From the IMG/VR virus record IMGVR_UViG_3300037483_001818: a stretch of DNA of 64,000 nucleotides, one strand, 5' to 3'. Both the position numbers and the translations under genes were made by a program. Of this stretch, positions 14 through 63,116 are shown in pieces (the stretch's first letter is position 1; every line of letters begins with the position of its first letter). The DNA comes from a virus (lineage: Duplodnaviria > Heunggongvirae > Uroviricota > Caudoviricetes). A model generated the notes under the pieces. The model searched no databases. It was not told where the DNA came from and saw only the letters and a list, made by a program, of their open reading frames with translations.

Positions 14-391
14 GTGCAGAGCAGCGGTGGCAGAGCGTTCGAGGTTAGTGGCCGAGATGCGGCTATCCGCGAAGCACGCCGACTTGCTTTGGAAGTTGCC
101 GCGGAAGATGTTCGTGTGTTGGAGGCTGGAAAGAAGGCGCTGTCACGTCTGCATGCGACCAAGAAGAAGTCGACCGCGCAGCTCGATCGCGAAATCGCAT
201 CCGCGCTCGTCCGTAGCCAGCGCGGTGATCGCGTGCTCGCGGATCTTACGCGCTGGGGCATCGACCGTGAGCAGCTTGACGAAGTTCGCCAGGCATTCCG
301 TTCAGGCAACCATCGCAAGGCGATTGCGATTGCGCGCGACCTTGGCTGGAATCGCTCCTCCAAGCGCGGACGTAGCGGCGTCTATCCGTGA
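14..391 (+). CDS. Hypothetical protein with internal KKSTAQLDREIASAL motif
   Basis: ORF contains RLHATKKKSTAQLDREIASAL (motif at 164-208). Start is at the window edge and uncertain. Confidence 0.75.
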   Translation: MQSSGGRAFEVSGRDAAIREARRLALEVAAEDVRVLEAGKKALSRLHATKKKSTAQLDREIASALVRSQRGDRVLADLTRWGIDREQLDEVRQAFRSGNHRKAIAIARDLGWNRSSKRGRSGVYP

Positions 392-413
392 GGACACGCT
401 TGTGACGTCAGCC

Positions 414-827
414 ATGTGGGAATACATCGCCGCATCTCCATCGCTCGTGATCTTCAAACCGAGCGATCTATCCGCGCGCTACGGAATAACGGCGGACGCC
501 GTCAAGACAGTCGTCCTGGCCGCGCTGACCGCGGGCCTCCTCAGACCCGTGTACCGCATCGCAAATGCGTCGGTGCTCGATCGGCAAGCGCGTGCGTGGA
601 CACCGGAGCTGGTCACACTGCGCCGCAAATGGGAAACCACCGACGGTGATGAAGTGGACGGAGCGGATCCGAAGGAGATTGCGATCGCGTTCGAGCGCAC
701 GCAGGTAGACAGAGACGTAACCAAAGAACTTGAAGCCTCAAGGAACTTGGAACCGGACTGCCCCTACGGAGCGGTGGGGGCCGGTAGGTACATGCGTGAT
801 GGCAAACGGCTGCCTCCGCAAAAGTGA
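414..827 (+). CDS. Hypothetical protein
   Basis: C-terminal part of ORF 27..827 from ATG 414; protein-like composition. Confidence 0.55.
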   Translation: MWEYIAASPSLVIFKPSDLSARYGITADAVKTVVLAALTAGLLRPVYRIANASVLDRQARAWTPELVTLRRKWETTDGDEVDGADPKEIAIAFERTQVDRDVTKELEASRNLEPDCPYGAVGAGRYMRDGKRLPPQK

Positions 828-867
828 GTTTGCCCTGATCTCACAAGCTCGCAGTAGGCTCGTGGTC

Positions 868-1083
868 ATGGCCATCCTGCACTGGAAAAAAGTAACGGCC
901 GGCGTCTATCACGCGACGTCACCGTGGGGTCTTTACGTCATCGACGGCAACAACTTTGGCAGGAACCGCTGGACGGTGACCTATCCCAACAGCGATTACG
1001 GGATGGCTGACGCCCTTGCCGAGGCCAAGGCGTGGGCCGAGACGGATGTCGCCGAGCGCGCTGCGCGCGGTAAAGCTACTTGA
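868..1083 (+). CDS. Small hypothetical protein, probably leaderless
   Basis: MAILHWKK...; TAGGCT at 855-860 lies 7 nt before the ATG. Confidence 0.7.
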   Translation: MAILHWKKVTAGVYHATSPWGLYVIDGNNFGRNRWTVTYPNSDYGMADALAEAKAWAETDVAERAARGKAT

Positions 1084-1345
1084 TGGGAGACAATTCGGTG
1101 CGGATGCGTTGCTCGCGCACCGTGTCGTGCAGGGCGATCGCGCACAGCAACCTCTCACGCACGACGTGATCCGCGGTCGCGAACGCGAGATCCTCTAGCT
1201 CGTTGAGCGTCAGCACCACGGCTGTTGCCGGGCCTCTGCCGGAATGAAGAACCGGATCGTCCGGGCATCCCACACAACGGCCACATGCAGCGCAGCGATC
1301 CATCAGCGTGCCTCGGTAAACGGATCGTCAAGGAACGCCTGCGGC

Positions 1346-5061: not shown

Positions 5062-5240
5062 CACCAGTCTCCCTTCACGTTCATGGGGCGGATCTTGGTC
5101 AGCTCGCTGTAGAAACGGTAGGCCGCCGCGCAGCCGACGTCGCAGACGACGTCGCCACAAACAACCTGGCCGGTATTGGCGGGCGGCTCGCGCAGCGAGG
5201 CGGAGAGCTGGCCGATCTTGACGTGACGGGCTTCGGTCAT
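5061..5240 (-). CDS. Small hypothetical protein, first gene after a sigma54-type promoter
   Basis: MTEARHVK...; ATG 13 nt after the -12 GC. Confidence 0.55.
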   Translation of the reverse strand: MTEARHVKIGQLSASLREPPANTGQVVCGDVVCDVGCAAAYRFYSELTKIRPMNVKGDW

Positions 5241-5252
5241 GCTCGATTGTAG

Positions 5253-5363
5253 TGCGAGCCGCGGGCCAGCGCGCGGGCACGCCAGATCTCTCCAAGCTGT
5301 CAGATGCACTCGGACGGGTAGCTAGGTACCCGTGTCGTCAAGCCCCTGGGTAAGGAGATACCC
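5253..5363 (-). promoter_or_regulatory. Sigma54-type promoter with two upstream GGGTA-N6-TACCC palindromes
   Basis: Minus strand CTGGCCCGCGGCTCGCA (GG-N10-GC) at 5253-5269; palindromes at 5316-5331 and 5348-5363. Confidence 0.7.
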
Positions 5364-5444: not shown

Positions 5445-5540
5445 GGTTATTGGGAAACGGATTCGACCGTTTCGCGCGTTCTGGGGAAGCGCGTTCTACT
5501 TCCGTCGAGTTTCTGGGAAACGCGAGTTCTACTTCTGTCG
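5445..5540 (+). repeat. Intergenic degenerate repeat cluster (GTTCTACTTCYGTCG family)
   Basis: GTTCTACTTCCGTCG at 5493 and GTTCTACTTCTGTCG at 5526, separated by AGTTTCTGGGAAACGCGA. Confidence 0.7.
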
Positions 5541-5766
5541 CGCCCGATCCCATGGCTCCGAAACCACATCGCGAATCGATCCACGGCGCAGTAGCCTGGT
5601 CGCATGCAGGTCGTCGAAGGAGCGCGCGAGCTTCCTTGGATCGAGGCGCTGGCGAGGACGGCGTACGTCGGTCAGTCTTCGTTCACCGCGCCGGGCAGCC
5701 GCAGTCGATAGACGTAACACTGTTCGTCGTGCACGTCTGGATAGCGCCGATGTTACGCTTCTTGCG

Positions 5767-6183
5767 ATGAAAAAGTCGGTCGCCCAGCTCGATCGCGAGA
5801 TCGCCGAAGCACTCATCAAGACACACGAGACGCCAAGCGGCTTCACGTGTTCGTACGGCAGTGTCGGCGAGATCAACGTCCTATATAAAGAGGACAGCTG
5901 CTACGTCGACAACATTGAAGTCGACCCGAAGTATCAGCGACAGGGCATCGGCACGAGGCTTTGGGAGGCTGCCGCCAACTTCTGCTGGAAGCGCAAGAAG
6001 CTCCCTTTGAGATCGGGCTACATCGTCTCGTCAGACGCACTCGCCTTCTGGCAACGGCAATTCAAGAAGGGACGTGCAACGCGTACCAAGACCGATCCAG
6101 AACTCCTCGATCCGGACATTGACGACTTCTACAATGAGTACAGCTACACGCTGCGCACCCCACCCCCCAAGGATCTCTCGTGA
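5767..6183 (+). CDS. GNAT acetyltransferase with N-terminal KKSVAQLDREIAEAL motif
   Basis: VDNIEVDPKYQRQGIGTRLW (GNAT motif A) and DALAFW; extended -10 TGTTACGCT 7 nt before ATG 5767. Confidence 0.85.
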   Translation: MKKSVAQLDREIAEALIKTHETPSGFTCSYGSVGEINVLYKEDSCYVDNIEVDPKYQRQGIGTRLWEAAANFCWKRKKLPLRSGYIVSSDALAFWQRQFKKGRATRTKTDPELLDPDIDDFYNEYSYTLRTPPPKDLS

Positions 6184-6437: not shown

Positions 6438-6477
6438 AGTAACGAAATGGACGTATTTCCGATCGTTTTGTTACCAT
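6438..6477 (+). promoter_or_regulatory. Leaderless sigma70-type promoter inside an inverted-repeat operator
   Basis: AGTAACGAAA TGGACG...TTTTGTTACCAT, then 6 nt to ATG 6484; near copies at 20091 and 24394. Confidence 0.7.
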
Positions 6478-6483
6478 CAAGCA

Positions 6484-6681
6484 ATGACGGACGATCAGCG
6501 GCTGATGACGCACCGGCGCGGCACATGGAAGAGCGCGTGGAACAGCTTGAACAAGGCGTCCACCTATCTCTGGTCCGATCCAGATACAAAGAAACTCGCC
6601 CAGGAAGTGGACGCTTTGATGATGAAGCTCGACGCGGTCATTGATCGGGAACGGTCGGAACGGAAGACGCGCAGACGATAG
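6484..6681 (+). CDS. Small helical hypothetical protein
   Basis: 65 aa ORF directly after the promoter element. Confidence 0.65.
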   Translation: MTDDQRLMTHRRGTWKSAWNSLNKASTYLWSDPDTKKLAQEVDALMMKLDAVIDRERSERKTRRR

Positions 6682-6694: not shown

Positions 6695-7168
6695 ATGACG
6701 ACGGCCCGAAAGAAGACCGGCACTCAGCTCGACCGTGAGATCGCTGAAGCGTTGTCGCGAGCCCCTCGCAAGTCCCGGCATCACGCGACGGTCCTCGACG
6801 TTGAGTTGAGCCCCTACGCGTTGCACATCCGCAATGAGAGTGCCGCCACCCTCCGCAGCTTCGGGTATCAGAAACTGGCGACCGGTAGCGCGCGAGGTGA
6901 GCCGTACGAGATCTATGGCGACAACACGGGCTCGTACACCGTCAGGCGGACGAAGGACTTGAGTGAGTTGGCTACGGCGTATGTGGCTGACGACGGCAGG
7001 AAAAACTATCTGACCAGCGTCAGCCTCAACGACCCGAAGTACAAGCGCCTTGGCATCGGCACCGCGCTGTACAACACGATCGAGAAGCACCGTGGGCGGA
7101 AACTGGAGCCGAGTCCGACGCATCAGTCCGACGAAGCAAAAGCCTTCTGGTCGCGCCGTACACGCTGA
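6695..7168 (+). CDS. GNAT acetyltransferase with N-terminal KKTGTQLDREIAEAL motif
   Basis: LTSVSLNDPKYKRLGIGTALY and QSDEAKAFW; motif followed by SRHHATV. Confidence 0.8.
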   Translation: MTTARKKTGTQLDREIAEALSRAPRKSRHHATVLDVELSPYALHIRNESAATLRSFGYQKLATGSARGEPYEIYGDNTGSYTVRRTKDLSELATAYVADDGRKNYLTSVSLNDPKYKRLGIGTALYNTIEKHRGRKLEPSPTHQSDEAKAFWSRRTR

Positions 7169-7170
7169 CA

Positions 7171-7440
7171 GCGCGGTTCTACTTCTGTCGAGTTTGAGGA
7201 AGCGCGGTTCGATTCATGTCGGCACCCGTGCAAATGCCGTCGGCATCGTGCGCGGCCTGCGTGCAGACTCCGTCGATCGACGCGCGCAGTTTTCGACGGT
7301 TGGCTAGGGTTCTGAGGAAGCCCGAGGGGGTATCTGGGAAACGCGGGGTTTTTGGGCACACTCTTTTTTGGTTTTTTGGTTTTTCGGTTTCGGCGAGGCG
7401 TGCCTCGAAACCACCTCGGACCTCAGACCTTTTGAGGTAG
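7171..7440 (+). repeat. Intergenic repeat cluster with T-tracts
   Basis: GGTTCTACTTCTGTCGAGTTTGAGGAAGCGCGGTTCGATT at 7175; TCAGACCTTTTGAGG near 7423 is shared with 19615. Confidence 0.7.
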
Positions 7441-10560: not shown

Positions 10561-10634
10561 TCAGGCAGCTCGGCGGGACAGAACGTGCACAGAAGTCGCG
10601 TTTGTGCCCCCGGCGGCGGTAAGCTCGACGCGTC

Positions 10635-11435
10635 ATGACTGCGCTCAAGGACATTGTTTTCGAGACTGATCAGTATTGGGTGAAACGTGTGCCCAAGGGA
10701 TTTGAAGTCTACAAGACAGGGCTTACCCACAGCACACGCGTAGCCATCATTGGCTATACCGGCGACAAGGGGCTGCAACGCGCAAAGCAGGAGATCGCGC
10801 GAAGAGAAGGCTCGAACCTTCAACGCTCGGCGCACACGACGATGACGAAGAAGTCGCCGGCCCAGCTCGATCGCGAGATCGTGGAAGCACTCGCGAACAA
10901 GGACAAGCCGACGACGTGGAAGCAGCGTGAGGCCCTCTACGAACGAGGTGCGCGCTCCGACTGCACCGACTTTCTGCTGAGCTACCTGCCCTACGCGGGG
11001 GAGGAGCCCTATTCCTCGCGGAGCGGGCAGGGCTCCTACGAGGAGTGCTACGACACGCGCGATCTCGCGAAGCGGCGACTCCAGCAGCTCCGCAAGGACG
11101 GGCGGATCGAGTGGGCGAAGATCTACCAGCACGATCATCGCTACCCCCTGCAACGCAAGCTCGTCGACGAATGGGAAGAGAGGCGTCGCGCGCATTCGAC
11201 GGTCAAGACGTACAACGCTCCGAAGCCTGATCTGACCGTGCGCCAGATCAACGCCATCGTACGGGCGGCGGACGGCCGCAATATCTACCTGATCCGCACC
11301 AGGCTCGGCGACGAGACCGTCCAGCGCATCACGCGCGCGCGCACCAAAGGCCGCGAAACGGAGGTGCGCTCTCTCGCTACGGGGAACTGGATCCCTGTGC
11401 TCCCCGAGCGCGGCGACAAGCTCGAAGTGCGCTGA
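10635..11435 (+). CDS. Three-module hypothetical protein with internal KKSPAQLDREIVEAL motif
   Basis: Apparent modules separated by RSAHTTMTKKSPAQLDREIVEAL (motif 10848-10892) and RRAHSTVKT. Confidence 0.8.
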   Translation: MTALKDIVFETDQYWVKRVPKGFEVYKTGLTHSTRVAIIGYTGDKGLQRAKQEIARREGSNLQRSAHTTMTKKSPAQLDREIVEALANKDKPTTWKQREALYERGARSDCTDFLLSYLPYAGEEPYSSRSGQGSYEECYDTRDLAKRRLQQLRKDGRIEWAKIYQHDHRYPLQRKLVDEWEERRRAHSTVKTYNAPKPDLTVRQINAIVRAADGRNIYLIRTRLGDETVQRITRARTKGRETEVRSLATGNWIPVLPERGDKLEVR

Positions 11436-12147: not shown

Positions 12148-12648
12148 TCACCTCGGCCGGCGCAGACGCCGTTGCCGCGACCGCACATCCTCATCAAGAA
12201 GGCTGCCCTTCTCCGCCATCTTCTCCATGCGCTTCTCCATGGCCGGCGTGATCTTGAAGCGCTTTCGCAGATCGTCCATGTTGGCGGCCTGCTTGATGGC
12301 GTTGAACTTCGTAAGCAGCCCCCTCATGCGTTCCTTCGGCGTGCGTGCAGCCAGACCGGTGATCGCCTTATTGCCCACAGCTTGGAGATAGTCATCGATC
12401 TCACGTGCAAGTTGTTGTGGTGATTTTCTCGGCACGGAAGCTTTCATCGTTGCGTGATGGCTCCTACTGGTCGCGAGAACCTCGACGACCTGCGCCCATT
12501 TTGACGACTCGTAGCGACTCTCCATGGAGCGCGCGTAGCGTCCCGCCGCGTTCTTGTCTCCCTTGAAACGCTTGAGCGTGCGCTCTGCTAGTGCGACCAC
12601 CTCAGCGTGTGTGAACGATTTCTCGAAGCTCTTGATATTGCCGCGCAC
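12148..12648 (-). CDS. Basic hypothetical protein with variant motif RKSPQQLAREIDDYL
   Basis: SRSHHATMKASVPRKSPQQLAREIDDYL; TGTTAAGCT 6 nt before the GTG start. Confidence 0.75.
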   Translation of the reverse strand: MRGNIKSFEKSFTHAEVVALAERTLKRFKGDKNAAGRYARSMESRYESSKWAQVVEVLATSRSHHATMKASVPRKSPQQLAREIDDYLQAVGNKAITGLAARTPKERMRGLLTKFNAIKQAANMDDLRKRFKITPAMEKRMEKMAEKGSLLDEDVRSRQRRLRRPR

Positions 12649-12720
12649 GCGGGGAGCTTAACATCCTCGGGGCGCAGCCGATAATTTGCCCCCAGATCTC
12701 GGGCGGTTTAGCGTTGATCC

Positions 12721-13383
<663 letters not shown>

Positions 13384-13391: not shown

Positions 13392-13763
13392 TCAACGCAC
13401 GGTCGGCAGTCCGAGCCGTGTGACAAGCTTGCCGAGAGCGTGACACGCCTCCGCGCGGCAGTTGCGTGGCATCGCGCGCAGGTCCTCACACGCCTCGTCG
13501 TCGACTACGACCAGCCGCCAGTGCCCGCCGCGCCCACTCCAGCCGAGCTTGCCCCAGGGCGGGAAGGGCACGTCAACGGGATGTCCGCTCGGGCGGTGCG
13601 TCACGATCGCGCGCTCGATCAGGGTGAGCGTTCGACCTATCGTGGCGTCGAGCTCGCCGAGCTGCCGGCTCTTCGCCGCGAGCTGCATGACAACCTCGCG
13701 CAGCGGTGGCGCGTCCGACGGCGGCACGTACGGAGCGGCTTGCTTGGGGCGCTTGCGCTTCAG
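13392..13763 (-). CDS. Hypothetical protein sharing its N-terminal module with 15908..16222
   Basis: KRKRPKQAAPYVPPSDAPPLREVVMQLAAK; start uncertain (CTG overlapping the upstream stop). Confidence 0.55.
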   Translation of the reverse strand: MKRKRPKQAAPYVPPSDAPPLREVVMQLAAKSRQLGELDATIGRTLTLIERAIVTHRPSGHPVDVPFPPWGKLGWSGRGGHWRLVVVDDEACEDLRAMPRNCRAEACHALGKLVTRLGLPTVR

Positions 13764-14053
13764 CGGGTTCGCTCCCAGTGATCGCGCGCTCTTTCCCACA
13801 TATCGAGCTGCCGGGTGTCCTTGACCTGATCCGCGTACCAGGGCAGTCCCGGAAATTCGGTCTCCCACGCGCGCACTTCTTTTTCGTGTGCGCTCAGGCG
13901 TGGGCGCGGACGCTTGGAGTACGCGTTGGCCACCACAAGACCCACGACCACGAGGCCGGCGCCGCCGAGCAACCAGGGAAGGGCCGAGCGCCCCAACGGC
14001 GCGTCGGCTCCGACGTAGGGGCGAGGGCTGTAGTGACCGCGCTCGTTCGACAT
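13760..14053 (-). CDS. Small single-TM membrane protein
   Basis: ALPWLLGGAGLVVVGLVVANAY hydrophobic segment; TAGACT 6 nt before the ATG. Confidence 0.7.
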   Translation of the reverse strand: MSNERGHYSPRPYVGADAPLGRSALPWLLGGAGLVVVGLVVANAYSKRPRPRLSAHEKEVRAWETEFPGLPWYADQVKDTRQLDMWERARDHWERTR

Positions 14054-14548
14054 GGGTCGAGTCTACCTCGAAGTCGATCGACGCTTCCCGCCGATCCTGA
14101 CGTCGCGCAACGCTTCGGTGAACAACACCTGCGTGTTTCGGCGCTGTCCTTCCAAACGTTGGGAAGCTGCCTCGACAGCTTCGTCGATGGTATCGGCAAA
14201 GGTCCAGCTGTGCCCGGCAGTACCGTCCTCGATATTCCAACGCCAGCCATATCCCTTGAGGCGTTCGTACTCTTGCGGCGTCGAGTCCCCGCGACTTGAG
14301 CGCAAGGAGTCTTTGGGCAACTTGAATGGCAGAACGATGCCGTGACCGAGATCGATCTTCGAGCGATCTACGTGCACGACTTGCCGGCCAGGACCGTAGC
14401 CCCAAAGCACCCACGTGCCCGGCTCGATTTGAAGATGCCACTTGTTCATGGGACCCTCTTCGCAAGCGCTTCGCACCCACGCACGCGATAGGGCCGGCCG
14501 TAGAGACCGCGCTCGTTCGACATGGAATCGAGTCTACCTCGAAGTCGA
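14035..14548. repeat. ~43 bp direct repeat spanning stop/promoter/start junctions (14035-14077 and 14505-14548)
   Basis: GACCGCGCTCGTTCGACATGG(g/aa)TCGAGTCTACCTCGAAGTCGA occurs twice. Confidence 0.85.
14063..14449 (-). CDS. Hypothetical protein
   Basis: MNKWHLQIEPG...; lies between the two direct repeats. Confidence 0.65.
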   Translation of the reverse strand: MNKWHLQIEPGTWVLWGYGPGRQVVHVDRSKIDLGHGIVLPFKLPKDSLRSSRGDSTPQEYERLKGYGWRWNIEDGTAGHSWTFADTIDEAVEAASQRLEGQRRNTQVLFTEALRDVRIGGKRRSTSR

Positions 14549-15663: not shown

Positions 15664-15911
15664 GTTTCGCCGCTCGACAGCCGAAGCGCAGTGTCGGCCA
15701 TCGCCGTCCGCCAGTACTCGTAGGCTGCGTCCGCCTCACCCTCGTTGCCGCGCCACGCGCGCCGTGAAAGGACGCCAGCGCGATACAAGCTCGCGAGAGT
15801 GACACGCTCACCGCTGCGGGCGGCGCGGTACCACAGCCCGCGCCGGTTGTGCGCCGAGACGACGCCGAAGACGTAGCGCTGGAGTTTCGTGAACCGCTGG
15901 AGCGGTTTCAT
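15660..15911 (-). CDS. Small wHTH-like protein, paralog of 17070..17312
   Basis: TKLQRYVFGVVS...GERVTLASLYRAGVL.RRAWRGNEGEADAAYEY is shared. Confidence 0.75.
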   Translation of the reverse strand: MKPLQRFTKLQRYVFGVVSAHNRRGLWYRAARSGERVTLASLYRAGVLSRRAWRGNEGEADAAYEYWRTAMADTALRLSSGET

Positions 15912-17069: not shown

Positions 17070-17312
17070 TCACGGCTTCACGCCGTCGGACAGCGTCTGC
17101 CGTAGGACCTGATCCGCTTCCTGCGTCAGTTGGTACTCGTAGGCCGCGTCCGCCTCGCCCTCGTTACCGCGCCATGCCCGCCGCTTGAGCACGCCGGCCC
17201 GATAGAGACTCGCGAGCGTGACACGCTCACCGCTCGACGCTGCGCGATACCAGAGGCCGCGCAGGTGATGACCAGAAACGACGCCGAACACGTAGCGCTG
17301 GAGCTTGGTCAT
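17070..17312 (-). CDS. Small wHTH-like protein, paralog of 15660..15911
   Basis: Near-identical core to 15660..15911. Confidence 0.75.
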   Translation of the reverse strand: MTKLQRYVFGVVSGHHLRGLWYRAASSGERVTLASLYRAGVLKRRAWRGNEGEADAAYEYQLTQEADQVLRQTLSDGVKP

Positions 17313-18202
17313 GACTGATGTCCCTTGTAGATCGCGTCACCGTCGACCTCGCAACCAAACAGCTTCCCGGCGCAGTCACGGCCGACCCACAGGGAGTGAG
17401 GCACCTTGTCCGCGTTGTACGCGAGGATCGGCACCCAGTTGAATGGATTCTGGATCGCGTGCCCGCACGCCTGGCATTGCTGGTTGTTCTCGCTGTAGTG
17501 GAAGCGCGACGTGTTGTGACGCGTGCCCTCGGGCCAGTCGATCACGATTTCGTACACGCGCATCTTCTGTCCCTTGAAGACGAAGTCGACCCACTCGCCG
17601 TGCATTGGCGGCGACTGGATCGTCGAGACGTCGAGGCCGATGTTCTCGCCGACGGTCTTGGCGACCGTCGGCGACAGCGTCTTCATGACGACGACGGCCT
17701 TGGGGCGGCGAGAGTCGAGCAGCTCGATCAGTTCTGCGACCGGCGCGAACGCCTCCGCCCACCGGAGCGCGTCCTGGGCGTACGGCTTCTCCACACAGCT
17801 GAACTTCTTCTTGGCCGCGCTGAGCTTGGTGCGAAGTTCTTGCAGCAGCCGCGGGGCGCGTTTGAATGAGCCGAACAAAAGGCTCGCCTGCGCTTCGTTG
17901 AGCGGATGATCGTGACGCAGGTGCAACGAGCCGAACGAGTACTCGCCGAAGTCCTTCTCGACCTTGCGCGCCCACTTCGCCGCGATGTTCTGCTTGTTGA
18001 GCGTCGCGTGCACCGTGCGGGCGACACCCTTCTTCCAGTACCCGAGCTGCTCGGACTCGACCAGTGCCGGGATCGTGAAGTTGACGATCGTATCGCGGGC
18101 TTTGCCGCTGAACCACTCCAGGATGTTCTCGAAGCGCATGTCTTTGGGTACTGCGAACTGCACGCCAGGTCGATCGTTCGTCAAGTCAGCGATTGCACTC
18201 AC
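17309..18202 (-). CDS. Hypothetical protein with C-terminal Zn-finger-like motif
   Basis: CQACGHAI...VGRDCA; 297 aa with strong codon bias. Confidence 0.75.
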   Translation of the reverse strand: MSAIADLTNDRPGVQFAVPKDMRFENILEWFSGKARDTIVNFTIPALVESEQLGYWKKGVARTVHATLNKQNIAAKWARKVEKDFGEYSFGSLHLRHDHPLNEAQASLLFGSFKRAPRLLQELRTKLSAAKKKFSCVEKPYAQDALRWAEAFAPVAELIELLDSRRPKAVVVMKTLSPTVAKTVGENIGLDVSTIQSPPMHGEWVDFVFKGQKMRVYEIVIDWPEGTRHNTSRFHYSENNQQCQACGHAIQNPFNWVPILAYNADKVPHSLWVGRDCAGKLFGCEVDGDAIYKGHQS

Positions 18203-18205
18203 GAT

Positions 18206-46298: not shown

Positions 46299-47165
46299 GT
46301 GATCCACAAGCTCGATATCCTCAACGCAACCCAGACACCCGTTCCGTGGCTCTCGAGCGTCGAAGCGTTCAAGACGCCACGCACGTTCGAGTTCAAGCCA
46401 GGACTCAACGTCCTGTGGGGCCGCAATGGCTCCGGCAAGACGTCATTGACCAAGGTACTCGCGCGCTTGTTCCACTGCGAGCAGGGCAACCATCCGACGG
46501 TCTCGCAAGAGTCGCTCAGCGAGCTGGTCGGCGAACGCTTCCATCCGATCGATCTCGCCAAGGGCCTCTCGGTCGAACACGACGGCCAGGGCGTACGGCA
46601 CTTCGATCCGGGTCACGCGGTCGGGTTGATGGCAGGAGGAGCGGCGTTCGACTGGGACTTCGGAACAGAGGGCATCCAGAACCAGATGTTCAAAGGATCG
46701 GCCGGCCAGACGAACATGTTCCGCTTCGACCGCATTCTCAACGAGATCATCGCGGGCAAGGTCCCGGAGGTCGAATGGAAAATCCGGCGTGAGCTCGTGA
46801 GCGATGTGTGGCGTGAACGCATCGACCGCGCGAAGAGCCTCCTCAAAAAGAACGGGAAGAAGGGTCCGCCAACGATCCTGCTTGACGAGCCCGAGCGCAG
46901 CTACGATCTGAACGCCCAGGTCGGAGTCTGGCGCTTGTTACGCGCGTACTCGGATCAAGTCCAGTTCATCGTAGCGTCACATTCGCTGTTCGCGCTCAAG
47001 ATCCCCGATGCGCACTACATCGAGCTGTCACCGCGCTACCTGGCCGGCTCAGAGGCCGTGCTCGACATTCTCCAGAAGTGGCCGGAAGAGAAACCATCCA
47101 AGCCTCCCAAGGAGGCGGCGAAGACCGCGCGCACCGACCTGAAGAAGCGCAAGGAGTCGCTATGA
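46299..47165 (+). CDS. ABC/SMC-type ATPase (AAA_21-like), soluble
   Basis: GLNVLWGRNGSGKTS Walker A, SAGQ signature, ILLDEPE Walker B, QFIVASHS H-loop. Confidence 0.85.
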   Translation: MIHKLDILNATQTPVPWLSSVEAFKTPRTFEFKPGLNVLWGRNGSGKTSLTKVLARLFHCEQGNHPTVSQESLSELVGERFHPIDLAKGLSVEHDGQGVRHFDPGHAVGLMAGGAAFDWDFGTEGIQNQMFKGSAGQTNMFRFDRILNEIIAGKVPEVEWKIRRELVSDVWRERIDRAKSLLKKNGKKGPPTILLDEPERSYDLNAQVGVWRLLRAYSDQVQFIVASHSLFALKIPDAHYIELSPRYLAGSEAVLDILQKWPEEKPSKPPKEAAKTARTDLKKRKESL

Positions 47166-48347: not shown

Positions 48348-48645
48348 ACGAGTACGAGTACATGGCCCACTTGTGCTCGATCTACGCCAGCGATCGCGCG
48401 GGTAAGACGCAGACGATCGGCCTGCCGCTGCCCGGCACGCCCGAGTGCAACGCACTCTTCCTCGCCACGTGGGAGGCGTTCCGGCACGTGACCACGGAGA
48501 TGGGCAAGCTCCGCATGGCCGCGCAAGGGCTCCGCGTGAAAACGTCAGATCTGCTTGAGGCGTTCGTGCACGGCCGCCAGATTCCTGCACACGTCCGCTG
48601 GGCAGAGACCGAGGCGTTGATCCGTGCCGGTGAATGGCCGTGCCC

Positions 48646-49581
48646 ATGAAGCGAACGTTGACGGAAGCGGAGTGGAACCAGGTGTTCCAACTGCGCTGTC
48701 GCTCAAAGCAAGGGCAGTACCTGCCGCCGGACGCTAGCGCGCTCGTTGATGCCGCCTTCAAGGAGGACCCAAAGCGCTATGGCGCAGCGGAGGACGACGT
48801 CTTCAATGCAACCGTGCCGTTCGGATCACATGCGCGTATAAAACGGCGCGCCATGCAGAAGTACCTGTTCCTCGGCGACACGCACAACGATCTCGACTTC
48901 GTCGAGAGCGCCAGCAAGCTCGCACGAGAGCACGCGGCGGAGATCATCCAGCTTGGCGACTGGGGCTTCATCTGGCCGCGCAACCCGCAGCTCACCGAGC
49001 TCTCTGACATGCTCGTCGGACTCGGCGTCACGATGCGCTTCGTCGACGGCAACCACGACGACCATCCAACGTTGAAGAAGCTGCGGAAGCGGGTGCGCAC
49101 GCGCGCGGTCACGATCGCCACGAACGTGATTTATCAGCCCCGCGGATCGGTGCACGAGGACGAAGACGGCACGCGCTTTCTGTTCTGCGGCGGGGCGCCA
49201 TCGATCGATCGCGCCGGCCGCGTCGAAGGCGAATCGTGGTGGCCCGAGGAAACCATCACGGAGGCCGAGTTCAAGCTCGCGCTCTCGGCGAAGGACCCGA
49301 TCCACGTCCTCGTCACGCACGATGCACCCACCTATCCGCCCGGCTACTCGGCCAAGGGCACGCCTGACTACAAGCGCGCTCAACTGCTCTCGATGAAGCG
49401 CATCGCCGCACTCATCAAGAAGCACCGCCCGCTGCGCCACTTTCATGGTCACTGGCACACGAACTACACGCGCCGCCACGCGAAGGGCACGATCGTCACC
49501 GGGCTCGACTGCAACAAGCTCGACTCCACGTACCTCGACGAGGCCACGCTGCTGTGGTCGCGCGACCAGGAAACAACGTGA
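48646..49581 (+). CDS. Calcineurin-like metallophosphoesterase (domain starts ~48853)
   Basis: GDTH, QLGDWG, DGNHD, VTHDAP and HGHWH motifs. Confidence 0.9.
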   Translation: MKRTLTEAEWNQVFQLRCRSKQGQYLPPDASALVDAAFKEDPKRYGAAEDDVFNATVPFGSHARIKRRAMQKYLFLGDTHNDLDFVESASKLAREHAAEIIQLGDWGFIWPRNPQLTELSDMLVGLGVTMRFVDGNHDDHPTLKKLRKRVRTRAVTIATNVIYQPRGSVHEDEDGTRFLFCGGAPSIDRAGRVEGESWWPEETITEAEFKLALSAKDPIHVLVTHDAPTYPPGYSAKGTPDYKRAQLLSMKRIAALIKKHRPLRHFHGHWHTNYTRRHAKGTIVTGLDCNKLDSTYLDEATLLWSRDQETT

Positions 49582-50363: not shown

Positions 50364-51170
50364 GTGACGAAGGATGACCTCGGGGATCGTTGCAAGAGTT
50401 ACGAACTTGCAGAAGCAGGGCGTCGGGCGATGCGTGGACTTCCCCTGATCGCACGGTTGGACGGGCGTGCGTTTCATACGTTCACGCGAGATCTGAGCAG
50501 GCCCTACGAACACGGCATGTCGATCGCGATGATTGAAACCGCGCGCTACCTCGTACAAGAAATGACTCCACGCATCTGCTACACGCAGAGCGACGAAATC
50601 ACGCTCGCGTGGTTCGAGTCGTCACAGTCCGCCTCAGATTACGCGTTCGATGGACGCTTCCAAAAGCTTGCCTCCGTACTTGCTGGAATGACCTCCGCGA
50701 AATTCGGCAAACTTGTCATCGAGCACCTGCCCTCGAAGTCGATCGAGGTGCCTCACTTCGACTGCCGCGTATGGCAGGTACCAACGCTTCATGACGCAGC
50801 GGAGATCTTCCTCTGGCGCGAAGATGACGCGGTCAAGAACAGCATCACAATGGCTGCCAGTGCCTACTACTCGCATCGAGAACTCGATGGAAAAAGCGGC
50901 TCTGTCAAGCAGGAGCTGCTCTGGCAGAAGGGGATCAACTGGCACGATTTCCCGGCCTTCTTCAAGCGCGGGACGTATCTTCAGCGACGCGTATTCGATC
51001 GCGAATTGACCGCCGAAGAGCGAGAGCGCATACCAGAAGCGCATCGCCCGCCAATCGGTGCGACGTTCCAACGAACGCAGGTCGTAGAGCTGGACCTTCC
51101 GCCTGCGCGCAAGATCACGAATCTGATCGACGTCCTATTTGAACGTGCTGATCCTGTGAGCGCGGCATGA
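50364..51170 (+). CDS. thg1: tRNA-His guanylyltransferase Thg1-like protein (3'-5' polymerase family)
   Basis: RLDGRAFHTFT, YTQSDEITL, FDGRFQKLAS, FDCR, WREDDAVKNS, GINW...FKRG. Confidence 0.92.
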   Translation: MTKDDLGDRCKSYELAEAGRRAMRGLPLIARLDGRAFHTFTRDLSRPYEHGMSIAMIETARYLVQEMTPRICYTQSDEITLAWFESSQSASDYAFDGRFQKLASVLAGMTSAKFGKLVIEHLPSKSIEVPHFDCRVWQVPTLHDAAEIFLWREDDAVKNSITMAASAYYSHRELDGKSGSVKQELLWQKGINWHDFPAFFKRGTYLQRRVFDRELTAEERERIPEAHRPPIGATFQRTQVVELDLPPARKITNLIDVLFERADPVSAA

Positions 51171-53474: not shown

Positions 53475-54365
53475 TCAGCGAACCCCGCCGCCGCTGTTTC
53501 GCGCTCCGCTGCGCTTGTCGACCAGCGTGCGAAGCTCATCGCCGCGCGATCCGCGTCGGTAGTAGTTGATTCGTTCCTCGTCAGGCGCGACAGCGGCTTC
53601 GAGCGCGGCCATGCGCTCGAACGCCATCGGCTGAAACGCCGAAGCGATCGCCGCGTTGCGCTCAAGCTGCCCGATGTTCTCGATGCCCACGATTGCGAGA
53701 TCGACGGGCAGCGACCACACGTATCCGAGCGCGTCCTCGGCCGACCCGATCCTGCGGAATACCTCTCCCCGCGCGAACACCTTCATGGCCACGATCCCAA
53801 TGCCGGACTGGACCGCGTAGGGCAAGAGGCGATCCTGGAACGACAACCGGTGAACATCTGCCGGGTTCATCGCGAGAAGAATCGAGTCGAAGTGGTAGCT
53901 CGCGAGCGCCCGAAGCAGAACCTCGGGATCGGAATGCCCGCTGATCCCGACGTAGCGCACGAGGCCCTGGGCCTGAGCCTCCGCGGCCATCGTGACCGCT
54001 CCACCGGGTCCGAGCACTGCGTCGACCTCGGCTTGATCGTCGAGATGGTGGATCTGGAGCAAGTCGACGTGATCGGTGCGAAGTCGCCGCAACGAGGTCT
54101 CGAACTGCCGCCAGGCATCGTCGCGCGATCGCTGATCGGTCTTGGTCGCCAAGAACATCCGATCTCGCGCATACGGCGTAACCTCGCCGTAGTTCAGCTC
54201 GGAGTCCTTGTAGAGCGGAGCGGTATCGAAGTAGTTCACCCCGAGCTCCAGCGCGCGCACGATGATCGCTACCGCCGCATTGGAGTGCTGGTAGAGCGCC
54301 GACTCGCCGCCAAGGCCCAGGATCGAGCATTGGATGCCGGTCGAACCGAAGGTTCTGTATTGCAC
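53475..54365 (-). CDS. Aldo/keto reductase
   Basis: YRTFGSTG...LGLGG, GVNYFDTAPLY, FLATK, SLRRLRTDHVDLLQIH, VRYVGISGH, IVAMKV. Confidence 0.92.
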   Translation of the reverse strand: MQYRTFGSTGIQCSILGLGGESALYQHSNAAVAIIVRALELGVNYFDTAPLYKDSELNYGEVTPYARDRMFLATKTDQRSRDDAWRQFETSLRRLRTDHVDLLQIHHLDDQAEVDAVLGPGGAVTMAAEAQAQGLVRYVGISGHSDPEVLLRALASYHFDSILLAMNPADVHRLSFQDRLLPYAVQSGIGIVAMKVFARGEVFRRIGSAEDALGYVWSLPVDLAIVGIENIGQLERNAAIASAFQPMAFERMAALEAAVAPDEERINYYRRGSRGDELRTLVDKRSGARNSGGGVR

Positions 54366-55208: not shown

Positions 55209-56147
55209 ATGAAACGCGCTCTCCTTCTCACTTTTGCTCTCACTGTTTTGTCGGCATGTGCCGACGAAGTCCCCCCAGGAATCGTGCTTGGCCGTGCCTT
55301 GGTCACCGCATGTCCGGTCGCAGCTGCGAACGATGCTGCTGCACGCGAGGCGTGTGCCGATGCACTGACCGACATGACCGAGCTACGCGACGCACTGACC
55401 GATCCGGTGCTGTGGGGAGGACAGCCCGATGGCTTCCACGCCGCCGATCTTCTCACCGACGCGAGCCTCACCCAATTCGATCCGCGCGTCTGGCGACGGA
55501 TGTACTTGTCGACGTTCATGTTCGAAGCTGCTCCGTCCGAGATGGAGCAGGATGGCAAGTACCAGGTGCTCCGCATGCGCGTGCAGTTCCGCAACAAGCT
55601 CGATGCGGGCGACTATCCGTATCCGTTCTGGCACAGCGGCAAAAAGTGGACGGCCTATGAACAGGCAACCGAGGTACTGTTCGTCTTCGACAGCGCCGGC
55701 CGAATTCCGGTGGCAGTGCGCACAACACCCGATCCAACGCACGAGCATGATCCTCGGACGTGGGATGGCGTCTGGACATGGAACGCTGGTCAGGAGCCCC
55801 ACGTCTCTTTGTATACGTACCTGTTCTCGCCCGGAAACCCGCACGTCGCGGCGCTCGACACGGCGTATCGCAGCCTTGAAGAGACGATGCGCGAACAGGA
55901 TTGCAGCAAGTGTCACAGCCCGTCGAACAGTGCGATGGCCCTGCATCTGGAATTGCTCAACTATCCGAATCAAGCTCTCACCGCACGGCACAAGATCGCG
56001 CATCTGATCCAGATCAACGCGATGCCCCCTGTGACCGGCATTCCAAGCGACGACACGCGTGCCGATCTGATTCAGCGGGCCATGACCTTCGCCAATGCCG
56101 GCGATGCAGCCTTGGCGTATGAAGGCGAACCCGTTCCCTCGCTATAG
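55209..56147 (+). CDS. Lipoprotein with a c-type heme motif
   Basis: MKRALLLTFALTVLSAC lipobox; CSKCH; downstream AMPP; SD AGGA upstream. Confidence 0.75.
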   Translation: MKRALLLTFALTVLSACADEVPPGIVLGRALVTACPVAAANDAAAREACADALTDMTELRDALTDPVLWGGQPDGFHAADLLTDASLTQFDPRVWRRMYLSTFMFEAAPSEMEQDGKYQVLRMRVQFRNKLDAGDYPYPFWHSGKKWTAYEQATEVLFVFDSAGRIPVAVRTTPDPTHEHDPRTWDGVWTWNAGQEPHVSLYTYLFSPGNPHVAALDTAYRSLEETMREQDCSKCHSPSNSAMALHLELLNYPNQALTARHKIAHLIQINAMPPVTGIPSDDTRADLIQRAMTFANAGDAALAYEGEPVPSL

Positions 56148-56341: not shown

Positions 56342-57250
56342 ATGACGAAGTGCCTCGCCGTGTCCCCATTCACGATGCCCGCCGCGCTCGCCGCTGCTGA
56401 CGCCCTGCTAATCAACCCGACGTGGCGCGGCGAGCCCGGCACTGCGGAACAAACTGCCGCCTGGCTCTCCAACCCAACGTGGCTAGGAAAGCCCGACAAC
56501 GAGGAGCAGGCAGTGTGGCTCAGCAGCTTTCGGCGCCGTGCTGAGCTGGCAGCTGCGATGCCCGAGATCCATCGCAACGCCACCGATTCCGCCGCGCAGC
56601 ACGTGGCATGGCTGAAGAGCGAAGGCTGGGAGGCCCAGATCCCGCAGGGCACGTCCATGGATCTTTTCCTCGCGAGCACACTGAACATCGTCGCCAAGTG
56701 GCGTGAAATCGGCCGCGCTTACCAAGAGCAAGGCATTGATCGCGTCCTCTTGAAGAAGGGGGCGCGTGCCTCCGTGCCCGGAGCGCAACATCCCGTGGTG
56801 GCGGTCAGCACCCAGCAGGATCGTTTCAACTTCTGTTTTCAGCAAGTCGACACGGCGCCGACAACCGTGGACGCGTTGACCACGTGCGCGCTGGACATGA
56901 TCGGCACCACGGCACGCGAGGAAGTCCATCTCGACTTTCCAATGGTCGATCTACTCGTACGTGACGACGCGAAGTACATGCTGGGCATCCACGCCGGAAC
57001 GAACGTGATCACGCAGGCCGCCGAGCAGCTTCGCCTGGAGCTGAACGAAGTCGGTGGACGAGCGAGCGCCGCGGCGGAGATTCGGGTGACCCGGGGCATT
57101 CGCAAAACTCCCACCATCAAGCTGGACGGTCCGTTCGTGGTCGCGATCGCGATCCACCGCAACGGAACACCCCACGACGCGGCCCCGATCCTGTTCGCAG
57201 CCTATGTCGATCGTGACGCGTGGAAGAAGCCTGCCGAGGGGCGCATCTAA
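56342..57250 (+). CDS. Serpin-like protein
   Basis: VHLDFP, LELNEVGGRASAAAE (hinge-like), IKLDGPFVVAI and PILFAAYV resemble the serpin C-terminal signature. Confidence 0.6.
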   Translation: MTKCLAVSPFTMPAALAAADALLINPTWRGEPGTAEQTAAWLSNPTWLGKPDNEEQAVWLSSFRRRAELAAAMPEIHRNATDSAAQHVAWLKSEGWEAQIPQGTSMDLFLASTLNIVAKWREIGRAYQEQGIDRVLLKKGARASVPGAQHPVVAVSTQQDRFNFCFQQVDTAPTTVDALTTCALDMIGTTAREEVHLDFPMVDLLVRDDAKYMLGIHAGTNVITQAAEQLRLELNEVGGRASAAAEIRVTRGIRKTPTIKLDGPFVVAIAIHRNGTPHDAAPILFAAYVDRDAWKKPAEGRI

Positions 57251-57417: not shown

Positions 57418-57927
57418 ATGAAAGAGCCCAGCGACGCGGAATACCTCCCGATGATTTACGTCAAGATGACCTCTAAGGGGCCGCAGGTCTACGTCGGCCC
57501 TGTCAAGCCGGCCGTAAAAGACGTTGCCCACGCTTACACTGACAAGGTCCTCGACCCATCGAAGAAATGGGTGTTGCCGCTGTCGACGGGCGTCCCGGTC
57601 TTGCCCACACAGTCAGCACACATCACTGCATGCCCGAGGATGCTCTGTGTGCCAAACCGCTTCATGATCTCGAGCTCGGGTACGGCAGGAGGGGCAGCTG
57701 ACTGGATCGTCAAAGACATCAAGATCGACGGCTGCTCACAATTCAGAAGACCAGGTGATATTTCCGGAGAAATGTTCGCACCGAACGCGGGCATTGCTTC
57801 GGATGTGCTTGAACGCTTCGTTCAGTTCACTGCGATCCAGCCGAACACGGATGTTGATATAATTGTGACGTACGTCGGTATTAACGAGCATGGCTGCCCC
57901 TTGTTCGCGTCGCTGGATCGGGATTGA
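57418..57927 (+). CDS. Beta-rich hypothetical protein
   Basis: DWIVKDIKIDGCSQF...GEMFA...VDIIVTYVG. Confidence 0.6.
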   Translation: MKEPSDAEYLPMIYVKMTSKGPQVYVGPVKPAVKDVAHAYTDKVLDPSKKWVLPLSTGVPVLPTQSAHITACPRMLCVPNRFMISSSGTAGGAADWIVKDIKIDGCSQFRRPGDISGEMFAPNAGIASDVLERFVQFTAIQPNTDVDIIVTYVGINEHGCPLFASLDRD

Positions 57928-59961: not shown

Positions 59962-60297
59962 ATGACGAAGCCTGCAAGTACGATCGCGATCACTACTGTC
60001 GTCGAGAACCCCCGCCCGACCAGCACTGGCGTCGCTAAGGGCGTCGACTACGATGCCGATATCATGGTGACGGACGAGGCCGGTATCACCACTCGGTGGC
60101 GTGGCGAGCTGACCTACGCACCGCAGCACGACGGCACCCTCGTCCCCTACGGTAACTCGGTCGACTACTGGATGTCGGGCTCACTGATCAAGGCGCTCAA
60201 TACGCCATGGATCGCGGCTCACAGCAAGCTGGTCAAGGCGATCACGAAGTCGCTCGGTGGCGGCGAAGGTACCGAGTCCTTCGACGTGTCGCTCTAA
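59962..60297 (+). CDS. Hypothetical protein
   Basis: 111 aa ORF. Confidence 0.65.
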   Translation: MTKPASTIAITTVVENPRPTSTGVAKGVDYDADIMVTDEAGITTRWRGELTYAPQHDGTLVPYGNSVDYWMSGSLIKALNTPWIAAHSKLVKAITKSLGGGEGTESFDVSL

Positions 60298-60594
60298 ATG
60301 AGTCACTCCGCGCGATCCCTCCGCGTCCTCCGCTACCTGGACGTAACTCCAGGTAGTGCCACGACGGACGTCGTCAGCTACGAGAGCGGTTACGGTGCTC
60401 ACGCCATCTCCACCTTCGCGCTCGTGGTCCGAATGGCCGCGCGCGGGCTTCTGCGACGCGTGCGCTACGGCGGACATCATCGCCTGTACGTGACCGCGCT
60501 CGGTCGCCGCGTGATACGAGCCCCCGGCATGAGCGCTGCTGAGGCGCGTGTAGCCCGACTCGCCGCTCGCATGGCGGCAAAGGCAGCGCGCTAG
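60298..60594 (+). CDS. Small winged-helix protein
   Basis: LRVLRYL...LVVRMAARGLLRR......LYVTALGR. Confidence 0.6.
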   Translation: MSHSARSLRVLRYLDVTPGSATTDVVSYESGYGAHAISTFALVVRMAARGLLRRVRYGGHHRLYVTALGRRVIRAPGMSAAEARVARLAARMAAKAAR

Positions 60595-61172
60595 ATGGCG
60601 GGCGTGAAAGTGGAAGCTGCCCAGTTCGACATGCCCGGAAAGAAGACCTGCACGCGCTGCCACGATACCGAGTGGCCATGCTTCCTCGTCGATGGCCTGT
60701 GCCGCATGTGCCAAGCCCGACGCCGCGACGAGCGCCGCGAATCATCCATGACGCAGGCAACCCCGTACCGCTTCTGCTCCATCGAGGCTGACGGTCCATG
60801 GACCTCGCCGCCGTTTCCAGCCGCCGCCCGCCGTCACATCATGCAGGAAGTGATCGGCGGCTTCATCATGGGGCGACCGCGCTGGACCGAGGACCTGGAC
60901 GGAAACTTCATCTACGGTCTCGACGCCAAGGGCAAGGAGTTGAAGTTCGCGCCCACGTACACACCTGAACCGACGCCGCGACGCCGCGGCAAGAACAAGC
61001 CTGCGACCGCAGAGCAGCTCAAGAGCGAACGTTCGCGCGCGCGCAAAGAGCAGCTCGACGCGGCTCTCGCGACGACACTCGAAACCCGGCAGGCGGATCC
61101 GTACAACATTGCCTCATGGGAATCCGAGGCCAAGCCGACCGTGACGATCGAGGCGCTCACTAAGGATCACTC

Positions 61173-61601
61173 GTGAAGACGTCTTCCCGCGAAATCTGGA
61201 CGAACCTCACGCCACAACAGCGTGCGAACCTATTCTTCGTAGCCGAGGTCGATGTCGCTGAGGTCACGGGTCTGATCGAAGACACCACCGAGGACGAGAC
61301 AGGAATAGAAGAAGCACTGCACCGCGCCGGAGTGGGTGAGGCTAGTTGGGGGACACGGAATCGGGGATCAGTCCTCACGAACCTCGTGAAGAAAGGTCTG
61401 ATCAAGTCGAAGTCGACCTGGGAAGGCGAACATCACGAGCTGACACCACTCGGACGTCGGGTCATCAAGCATGTCGAGGCAATCTTGCTCGGGAAAGCCC
61501 CTGCCATCACAAAGGCATTTCAAGAAACGCGTCCTGAGAAGAAGAGCCCCGCGCAACTTGATGCCGAGATCGCCGAGACGCTCGCAAAGGAGACACGATG
61601 A
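61173..61601 (+). CDS. wHTH protein with C-terminal KKSPAQLDAEIAETL motif
   Basis: VLTNLVKKGLIKS...ELTPLGRRV; motif at 61539-61583. Confidence 0.75.
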   Translation: MKTSSREIWTNLTPQQRANLFFVAEVDVAEVTGLIEDTTEDETGIEEALHRAGVGEASWGTRNRGSVLTNLVKKGLIKSKSTWEGEHHELTPLGRRVIKHVEAILLGKAPAITKAFQETRPEKKSPAQLDAEIAETLAKETR

Positions 61602-62630
61602 CGCGCTTCTACGGAACGATCGAGTACGTGTCCAACCGACGTGCCGTTGTTGCTCTCACGGACGCTCGGGGCGAATTTTAAGGCATGCAGCGCATCGATC
61701 TGCCCCGCGCCAAGCACGGCAAGCGTGCGCTCTACGAACTGGGCTACAGCACCGCCGCGGTGATGGCCACGCTCAAAGGCGGCGCGCTCGACACGTTCAA
61801 GGTCCTCAAGACGTGAATCAAAGGAGTGCGTAATGCCTCGGCCGATCAAATGGAGTGGTCTGAAAGATCCACCGGACTACGACCTCCACACGAAGCGCCC
61901 GTCCGGGCACTGGGACGTCATGCTCAGCAAGCGTGAGGGCTGGGTCATCAGCTCTCCGCTGTATTGGAAGACCTTCCGTGACGCCGACAGGATCGTCGTC
62001 GGCCACGTCGACCGCGCGGTTGCGCGTCTACAAGCCGAAGCTCTGATCCGCATCGACGAGAAATGGCCGCTGTGAGCTGGAAGGAGCTGCGTGCCTCGTG
62101 CGTGTACAAGATCGCGCTTGGCACTCCCCGCCGTCCAGCCAACGCCCTCTGCATCGAGATCATGGAGCCGTTGCCGCGTTGCACGCTCAAGCTGCCGTCG
62201 CACTGGACGAGCACCGGAGCTTCCGCACTGCGCTGGCTCGGATCCGGTGGCAGCCCCCTCGTCCTGGGACGCTGCTCACCGAACTGCCCGCGCGCATACG
62301 AAAGCGCGGAGAAGTGACCGTCGACGAGGTCATCGCGACGCTCTTGGAGCTGGGATTCGCCCCTGCGGGCGAAACCACCGAACAGATCGTCCGGATCCCG
62401 ACGATGCGATCCCCCGTTTACGGCGGACTCGGCGGCGAGCGCCGAACACTCGGTGGTCGAGCGCGCTACACGCTGCCCGGCACCGATCTCCGCGTGACCG
62501 TTGGCTCGCGGACGACCAACGTGTACTTCTCTCGAGCCGGCAAGATCGAGTTCGTGCTGAACGAACGAACCAAGGAACTCGACGCGAAGATGCTCCGGGA
62601 CGCCATCACCGCAGCCACGGACTCTCACCA

Positions 62631-63116
62631 ATGAAAAAGACCGGAGCACAACTCGACCGCGAGATCGCCGAAGCACTTCGCTCACGCACCCGTACTGGGC
62701 ATGCCAGCAAGCGAAAGCCCAAGAAGACGGCCCACGAGATTCGGACGGATCGTCTGAAAGCGCTGAGGCGTCGCATGGCCGACGCTCTCGGCGACGACAC
62801 CTGGGACGATACGGATCCCGCGGAAATCGAGAAATGGATCAGCGTCGATGACGAGCTGTCCGATCGAGAGTGGCTCCAGGCCGCGCAAGACCAGCTCCTC
62901 GATAACAGCGTCCTGCCGGAGCATGCCGGCGCGCCGCCGCCCAACGTGTATGCCTGGAACGACGTCTTCATCTCCACGTATCGAATGAACATCGATGACG
63001 GCTTGGATGAAGAAGCTGCGATCAACAGCGCGCGACAAAACGCCTTCGACACGGTCGAGCTGACACGGAACGAGCGCGAGATGATCAAGACGGATCCCAA
63101 GCTCTACAAGGACTGA
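62631..63116 (+). CDS. Acidic hypothetical protein with N-terminal KKTGAQLDREIAEAL motif
   Basis: MKKTGAQLDREIAEALRSRTRTGHASKRK. Confidence 0.8.
   Translation: MKKTGAQLDREIAEALRSRTRTGHASKRKPKKTAHEIRTDRLKALRRRMADALGDDTWDDTDPAEIEKWISVDDELSDREWLQAAQDQLLDNSVLPEHAGAPPPNVYAWNDVFISTYRMNIDDGLDEEAAINSARQNAFDTVELTRNEREMIKTDPKLYKD

Follow-up and report, generated by a model that had tools for sequence, protein, structure and literature searches.

Why do 11 proteins encoded within 64,000 nucleotides of viral DNA, otherwise so different from one another, carry the same peptide of 15 residues? The stretch analyzed here (called the window, at its full length of 64 kb) belongs to the IMG/VR record IMGVR_UViG_3300037483_001818, and a preliminary description, made from its letters alone, had proposed that this peptide is a portable tag that recruits diverse effectors to one partner. 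The reading favored here, to which we give about an even chance, is that a position-free tag, present once per protein, loads polyproteins into the virus particle, where a candidate protease would cut them at a second motif, H-[AS]-[TRK] (hereafter HAT), which was overlooked in the preliminary description. This reading is indirectly backed by the HAT junctions, by a promoter-like box shared by the tagged genes, by the operon context of the tag in relatives of the window and by a cargo that includes a protein like Alt of phage T4.

The window has a GC content of 63% and approximately 125 densely packed small genes, few of them with a family, and family searches of its proteins recognized no structural gene. 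All 11 peptides quoted earlier were reproduced by translation, seven on the plus and four on the minus strand, each within an open frame, and the genes around them show codon bias. The pattern [KR]K[ST]xxQLxxEI has 11 matches in the six frames of the window and none in any of 60 simulations from a second-order Markov model. A profile scan, which the preliminary description had proposed, returned the identical 11 copies at 26–36 bits; no copy was overlooked, because the next best match drops to 6 bits. As described before, the tag is N-terminal in six proteins (genes starting at 5767, 6695, 19045 on the minus strand, 20137, 22642 on the minus strand and 62631), internal in four (the gene open at the window start, 10635, and 12648 and 23361 on the minus strand) and C-terminal in one (61173). 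The carriers had been called unrelated, which stands, as discussed below, and among their assigned families the GNAT at 5767 is firm (Pfam E 1e-7), whereas the second GNAT at 6695 (E 0.023), the Cys-finger at 19045 (E 5e-4) and the winged-helix-like protein at 61173 (E 0.023) are weak matches.

164-208, plus strand: tag copy 1, internal, directly after HAT at 152-160, in the gene open at the window start, with its stop at 391
5770-5814, plus strand: tag copy 2, N-terminal, in the GNAT gene 5767-6183, with the promoter-like box at 5754-5759
6710-6754, plus strand: tag copy 3, N-terminal, in gene 6695-7168 (weak GNAT match), with HHAT behind it at 6779-6790
10848-10892, plus strand: tag copy 4, internal, in gene 10635-11435, with HST at 11193-11201 and the promoter-like box at 10620-10625
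12385-12429, minus strand: tag copy 5, the most diverged, internal, in gene 12148-12648, with HHAT at 12448-12459 and the promoter-like box at 12655-12660
18992-19036, minus strand: tag copy 6, N-terminal, in the Cys-finger gene 18539-19045, which has 83% identity to a tagged gene of relative L004
20143-20187, plus strand: tag copy 7, N-terminal, in gene 20137-20388, after an imperfect palindrome
22589-22633, minus strand: tag copy 8, N-terminal, in gene 22121-22642, followed by HST at 22550-22558, with the promoter-like box at 22649-22654
23020-23064, minus strand: tag copy 9, internal, with a shuffled module on either side, in gene 22726-23361, preceded by HHST at 23092-23103 and HHAT at 23068-23079; promoter-like box of the gene at 23370-23375
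61539-61583, plus strand: tag copy 10, C-terminal, in gene 61173-61601
62634-62678, plus strand: tag copy 11, N-terminal, in gene 62631-63116, followed by HASK at 62700-62711

In metagenomes, a search with a DNA pattern based on the tag recovered at least 130 stretches (at least 124 loci), of which 10 loci were judged to be chance matches and excluded before all counts (L001, L009, L012, L014, L023, L045, L051, L073, L074 and L080). The loci retained, at least 114, have 57–71% GC, lie on contigs of up to 461 kb and have many genes in common with the window at 45–90% identity. They yielded 1025 called genes, or 845 after dereplication, and 130 of these are tagged. When the tag profile was compared with 1.84 billion clusters at 50% identity, 761 matches were obtained at E 0.001 or better; the best 150 of these 761 (hereafter the database proteins) are 58–377 residues long. 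The tag is absent from the viral contigs searched (0 matches to the tag patterns), neither the tag region nor the transglutaminase-like enzyme described below has a match in INPHARED phages, and seven GTDB matches to the tag pattern were all judged to be chance. No entry of Pfam, NCBIfam, PHROG or PDB corresponds to the tag, in agreement with the earlier remark that it is not a described motif. An ESM Atlas search gave matches all under 0.9, and no description of the QLDREI motif or of this clade was found in the literature searched, supplements not covered. The window sequence is present in five DNA sequencing runs from sediment and soil, two of which may be its source, with no RNA run among the matches listed; contigs from those runs confirmed the assembly and revealed relatives, and no gain or loss of the tag was found among the contigs compared. 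The tag marks an undescribed group of very large virus-like elements of soil and sediment, a clade that may not be a tailed phage.

The consensus of the tag is K-K-[TS]-[PA]-A-Q-L-D-R-E-I-A-E-A-L. There is one tag per chain in all 130 tagged locus proteins and in 144 of the 150 database proteins, the other six having two, and its position in the locus proteins is N-terminal in 63, internal in 44, C-terminal in 18 and other in 5. These 130 proteins form 78 sequence clusters that are mutually unrelated. They have a median length of 170 residues, are slightly basic (median +0.036 per residue vs 0) and possess no membrane helix (0/130), compared with 54 of 715 other proteins. Among 52 copies outside the DNA-pattern selection, the Q, L, E and I are retained in 50, 51, 49 and 49, respectively; the polar residues are as fixed as the hydrophobic ones, as expected of a single receptor. 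The tag has been gained and lost over time, since 24 of the 130 proteins have a domain in common with an untagged protein. The preliminary description also held that selection acts on the peptide rather than on the DNA, and named beforehand a dN/dS near 1 across copies among the results that would refute its proposal; the pairwise ratio of nonsynonymous to synonymous differences (pN/pS) among the 11 window copies is 0.26, and it is 0.10 over nine core positions, which were picked for conservation. Codon use inside the tag is close to that of the genome, and two tags from one locus resemble each other no more than tags from separate loci do (0.714 vs 0.707; third positions 0.55 vs 0.53). The peptide is therefore kept by selection and is not a spreading DNA repeat.

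The second motif is mostly HAT behind a basic linker of small residues. H[AS][TRK] lies within 10 residues upstream of the tag in 31 of 44 internal copies, 4 of 18 C-terminal copies and 1 of 63 N-terminal copies, against a background of 0.75% per 10 residues; for internal tags, reducing each cluster to a single protein leaves 16 of 25, and copies outside the DNA-pattern selection give 13 of 19. The spacing from the His to the Gln of the tag is 8–9 in 31 of 38 cases, so cleavage there would leave an internal tag close to a fresh N-terminus, about as far from it as other tags are from a start Met. The density of H[AS]T is eightfold higher in tagged than in untagged proteins (4.0 vs 0.52 per 1000 residues), with 86 seen and at most 13 in shuffles. 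In the database proteins, the motif occurs up to five times per chain and separates segments with a median of 83 residues, HAT counts that are biased by a profile that included the HAT flank. HAT marks the junctions of shuffled modules of 60–100 residues. Homology breakpoints fall within 10 residues of a HAT-type site in 39 of 60 cases vs 27% expected, although the 60 are non-independent and the masking of the tag beside HAT favors them. Such swaps are exemplified by the window gene 22726-23361, which carries tag copy 9, and by an untagged neighbor, two modules of which recur in tagged proteins of relatives L044 and L054.

23635-24387, minus strand: untagged protein of three modules, joined at HAR and HAT

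On the strength of these patterns, the HAT-joined chains would be polyproteins with a candidate protease site. The GPS sites of G-protein-coupled receptors undergo autoproteolysis at H-x-T, before the Thr; such self-cleavage is unlikely as a rule here, where 29 of 115 sites read HAR or HAK. The 'IAE' in the tag was likewise considered as a T4-type cut and is not conserved (position 13 is Glu in 70 of 130 proteins), while the conserved Glu10 may be an alternative cut site.

A promoter-like box, TA[AG]G[AC]T, lies 4–11 bases before the start codon in 22 of 38 tagged operon heads vs 23 of 339 others. Because the box motif was read off the tagged genes themselves, the comparison was repeated with one locus left out at a time, which gave 21 of 38 vs 28 of 339. 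The same box is found in all four untagged operon heads of a family of small membrane proteins that start with RGxY, represented in the window by one gene.

13760-14053, minus strand: one of the small membrane proteins with an N-terminal RGxY; promoter-like box, as in the tagged genes, at 14060-14065

This pattern suggests that the tagged genes and the small membrane proteins form one regulon of leaderless transcripts. Proteins with an RG[THSE]Y start, many of them with one membrane helix, are encoded at 13760-14053 in the window and in L003, L039, L043, L058, L059, L060, L065 and L066, and this family is possibly a second address or cleavage system.

Other DNA elements were also observed. An imperfect palindrome (GGTAACAAAA...TTTTGTTACC) at 6439-6489, 20091-20143 and 24381-24433 of the window ends approximately 10 bases before start codons; it is conserved in L007, L031, L047 and L067 and can be read as an operator or promoter element. 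A second upstream element (GCGCGGTTCGCACTACAA-like), located at 5228-5284, 18148-18228, 19459-19500 and 28784-28885, heads minus-strand runs of untagged genes and is probably another promoter class. In addition, repeats with a TTTTGAGG core occupy long gene-free stretches (~5490-5530, 7175-7221, 19656-19755 and 21015-21061), are conserved in L007, L011 and L031 and have an origin- or iteron-like look.

In three relatives (L043, L060 and L065), tagged genes belong to a conserved operon that includes a beta-rich lead gene, membrane proteins, transglycosylase-like genes and a 307-residue protein in addition to the tagged genes. The lead gene has a homologue in the window.

57418-57927, plus strand: lead-gene homologue (phmmer E 1e-10 to L043 and 2e-11 to L060)

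No longer homologue of the partial lead gene was found, and its pattern matched two records among viral contigs, both by chance in polymerase DNA of 32% GC. The operon proteins repeat V-G-[AS]/V-S-G motifs (3.7 vs 1.1 per 1000 residues). The 307-residue protein (L043:1893-2813) has 324 homologous clusters, on contigs of up to 502 kb, and is predicted to fold into two beta-sandwich domains with a predicted local distance difference test (pLDDT) score of 85.6, a putative jelly-roll protein. The window homologue of the lead gene is jelly-roll-like as well. The 307-residue protein has no relative in the viral contigs and none in the plasmids searched. When a complex of the tag and three jelly-roll chains was predicted, no answer resulted (score 0.00), which is evidence neither way. 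No capsid, portal, terminase or sheath match was obtained for the 100 longest of 699 non-redundant proteins from DNA near tags, and no capsid, portal or terminase match among 110 window proteins; 'tail fibre' matches near tags proved to be collagen repeats.

Inside the operon of L043 and L060, a tagged gene follows within 20 bases downstream of a gene for a transglutaminase-like enzyme of 175 residues, with 121 homologous clusters. Its triad of C92, H143 and D160 is invariant in 63 of 63 aligned sequences, its match to Pfam Transglut_core (E 1.4e-4) is just under the cut-off, and it has a weak match to LapG. The model of the enzyme has a pLDDT of 86.7, and transglutaminase-like folds top both fold searches. 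In L060 (8618-10126), an intein with a LAGLIDADG-like domain lies directly before the catalytic Cys. By gene adjacency alone, this enzyme is the best candidate for a HAT protease.

The cargo itself is mostly without known families: Pfam matched 8 of the 108 tagged locus proteins searched and, in the database set, 7 of 150. The families include PARP/ART-PolyVal, ParB-like, DUF6496, DUF5661 and Sigma70_r4, besides the GNATs of the window; for instance, the protein at L002:4211-4675 matches ART-PolyVal at E 1.3e-5 and PARP at E 1.2e-7. Proteins injected together with DNA are reported to include ADP-ribosyltransferases (ART) and GNATs, T4 Alt being the prototype (PMC5512222). No zincin-like peptidase or other domain typical of large polyvalent proteins was found in the 108 locus proteins or the 150 database proteins.

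Taken as a mechanism, virion loading would begin with tagged precursors that are produced together, perhaps late, from the shared leaderless box. The tag, as a helix, would then dock the precursors on one conserved assembly protein, and the docked precursors would be enclosed in the particle. There, the viral cysteine protease would cut the His-Ala-Thr junctions and release modules, which would be delivered into the host. We infer all of its elements, from the helix, docking and late expression to HAT cleavage, the enzyme as the cutter, the virion location and delivery. Capsid, scaffold, portal and RNA polymerase of a T4-like phage, which the preliminary description named as possible partners, may be the wrong list, because the DNA examined showed no hallmark of the HK97 type, and the glutamate cleavage motif of T4 and SPN3US is not kept.

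Several observations weigh against this mechanism, as does the dependence among breakpoints noted above. The tag is often not removable: of 101 tags followed by a long stretch, just 30 have HAT within 35 residues downstream, and a HAT-type site is missing altogether from 58 of the 130 tagged proteins, the GNAT at 5767 included. The box could simply be a strong -10 element of the ordinary kind, and late expression is a step that we infer. The operon is observed in relatives and not in the window, which has a homologue of its lead gene at 57418-57927. The capsid match of the jelly-roll protein is weak: the major capsid protein of Sulfolobus turreted icosahedral virus (STIV) aligns at Z 6.5 with a root-mean-square deviation (rmsd) of 6.8 over 203 residues, the best row (Z 7.5) is a single unrelated domain, and Foldseek gives template modeling (TM) scores of 0.2–0.3 to capsids. 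The fold scores of the enzyme are middling (best Z 6.5, rmsd 5.3, 114 aligned; Foldseek E 0.04 or worse), a PDB search with its profile turned up no transglutaminase-like chain, and both cell-wall hydrolases and cross-linking enzymes are among its relatives. Moreover, the tag is present in none of 120 jelly-roll proteins and none of 120 enzymes, and H[AS][TRK] in 6 and 2 of them, respectively, while T4 and SPN3US also process their shell proteins.

It is unlikely, though worth weighing, that the tag instead recruits proteins to an intracellular hub, such as a viral factory, a replication or transcription machine or a host complex, with HAT as a separate processing or linker motif. DNA-binding-like and modifying domains in the cargo (Sigma70_r4, ParB-like, RHH-like and GNAT) would suit such a hub, as would the many tags that cannot be cut off and the placement of most tagged window genes among small accessory genes without a structural neighbor. 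However, no tagged polymerase, helicase or ligase occurs among the 100 longest proteins around tags, the database proteins are all small, and the tagged genes share their box with small membrane proteins and occur in the jelly-roll operon. The tag could also bind itself, so that bundled amphipathic helices co-assemble basic proteins into a nucleoprotein core or condensate without a dedicated receptor, which HAT cuts would loosen on maturation; we regard this as distinctly unlikely. L7, I11, A14 and L15 do lie on one helical face, the only PDB rows for the tag are designed coiled coils (E 0.05 or worse), and slightly basic proteins with a single tag per chain suit a stoichiometric bundle, but approximately 11 helical residues are short for a stable coiled coil, and the near-invariant Gln, Glu and Lys-Lys suit a pocket better than a generic bundle.

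A true transglutaminase in the operon would open another route, in which the Gln and Lys-Lys of the tag serve as acyl donor and acceptor and tagged proteins are cross-linked to each other or to the particle. The Gln hardly ever gives way to Glu (83 of 86 and 151 of 152 pattern matches), although Glu would cap the helix equally well, and the fold neighbors of the enzyme include transglutaminases. The nearest neighbors are small prokaryotic proteases (LapG, PeiW/PeiP), however, the profile used to gather the database copies favors Gln, and HAT is left unexplained; we judge cross-linking improbable. Hardly credible, and largely refuted, is a selfish or recently spread in-frame DNA repeat without protein function. 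The copies do form a family of direct and inverted repeats of 41–49 bases, and the gain and loss of the tag between homologues (24/130) would fit, but the low pN/pS, the genome-like codons, the lack of likeness within loci and the 11 of 11 window copies in frame on the coding strand speak against it.

Apart from the tag, the window encodes an FHA domain (2194-2565), a collagen repeat (12721-13383), an ABC-type ATPase (46299-47165), a metallophosphoesterase (48634-49581), a Thg1-like protein (50517-51170), an aldo-keto reductase (53475-54365) and weak matches to cytochrome c (55374-56147) and a serpin-like protein (56342-57250). A tandem duplication of 51 bases (41580-41681) lies where an FkbM-type methyltransferase gene (41666-42595) begins, and a duplication of 186 bases with 80% identity (15705-15890 and 17124-17309) gave rise to two paralogous small genes.

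Virion loading by a short peptide has known counterparts. The capsid-targeting sequence (CTS) of T4 is a 10–19-residue N-terminal propeptide of the internal proteins IPI-III, removed by the prohead protease gp21 (PMC9026906). The tag resembles the CTS in being a short peptide common to small, basic, soluble and otherwise unrelated proteins, in coupling an address to a protease motif and in having an ADP-ribosyltransferase among its cargo, as Alt is among the T4 head proteins. Unlike the CTS, it is N-terminal in only 63 of 130 proteins, and its candidate cut site lies outside the tag, usually before internal copies, whereas the CTS ends in its own cut site, behind a Glu; the DNA examined, which lies near tags only, showed neither a gp21-type protease nor an HK97 capsid. 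In head maturation of the SPN3US/phiKZ type, gp245 cuts after A-X-E (PMC10052503). Likewise, there many internal proteins of a giant phage are processed by one protease at a short motif, but those cuts remove N-terminal propeptides and also affect shell and portal, whereas H-[AS]-[TRK] lies between modules and 'IAE' is not kept. Polyvalent proteins of phages and conjugative elements have 2–15 domains, are often large with a built-in zincin-like peptidase and were proposed to enter the host with DNA and be processed (PMC5512222). The tagged proteins likewise unite dissimilar domains in a single chain, ART and GNAT among them, and differ in their size of 58–400 residues, shared tag, explicit junction motif and lack of a built-in peptidase.

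Taken together, the observations allow a wider picture, which we hold tentatively and consider doubtful, of an unrecognized lineage of bacterial viruses of 400–500 kb that are not tailed phages and have an inner membrane within a jelly-roll shell. They would possess a general code for cargo loading, in which one 15-residue address and a HAT cut site serve to build, shuffle and package effector polyproteins that a LapG-like protease processes. Eukaryotic viruses offer a parallel: the pp220 and pp62 of African swine fever virus and the pVI and pVII of adenovirus are precursors that a viral cysteine protease cuts during maturation, at a short motif of small residues. Those precursors are few, fixed and conserved, their proteases belong to a different clan, and no portable tag on fast-changing cargo is involved.

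The clade itself is large, with 324 clusters for a single core protein and contigs that reach 502 kb, and is missing from the phage, plasmid and viral-contig collections searched. If virion loading is true, a CTS-like address would work at any position of a protein and could be combined with polyprotein processing. The tag would then reveal which proteins an entire uncultured lineage carries into its host, and the 761 protein clusters, more than 90% of them without a known family, would become ranked candidates for takeover or counter-defense modules, with their boundaries marked by HAT.

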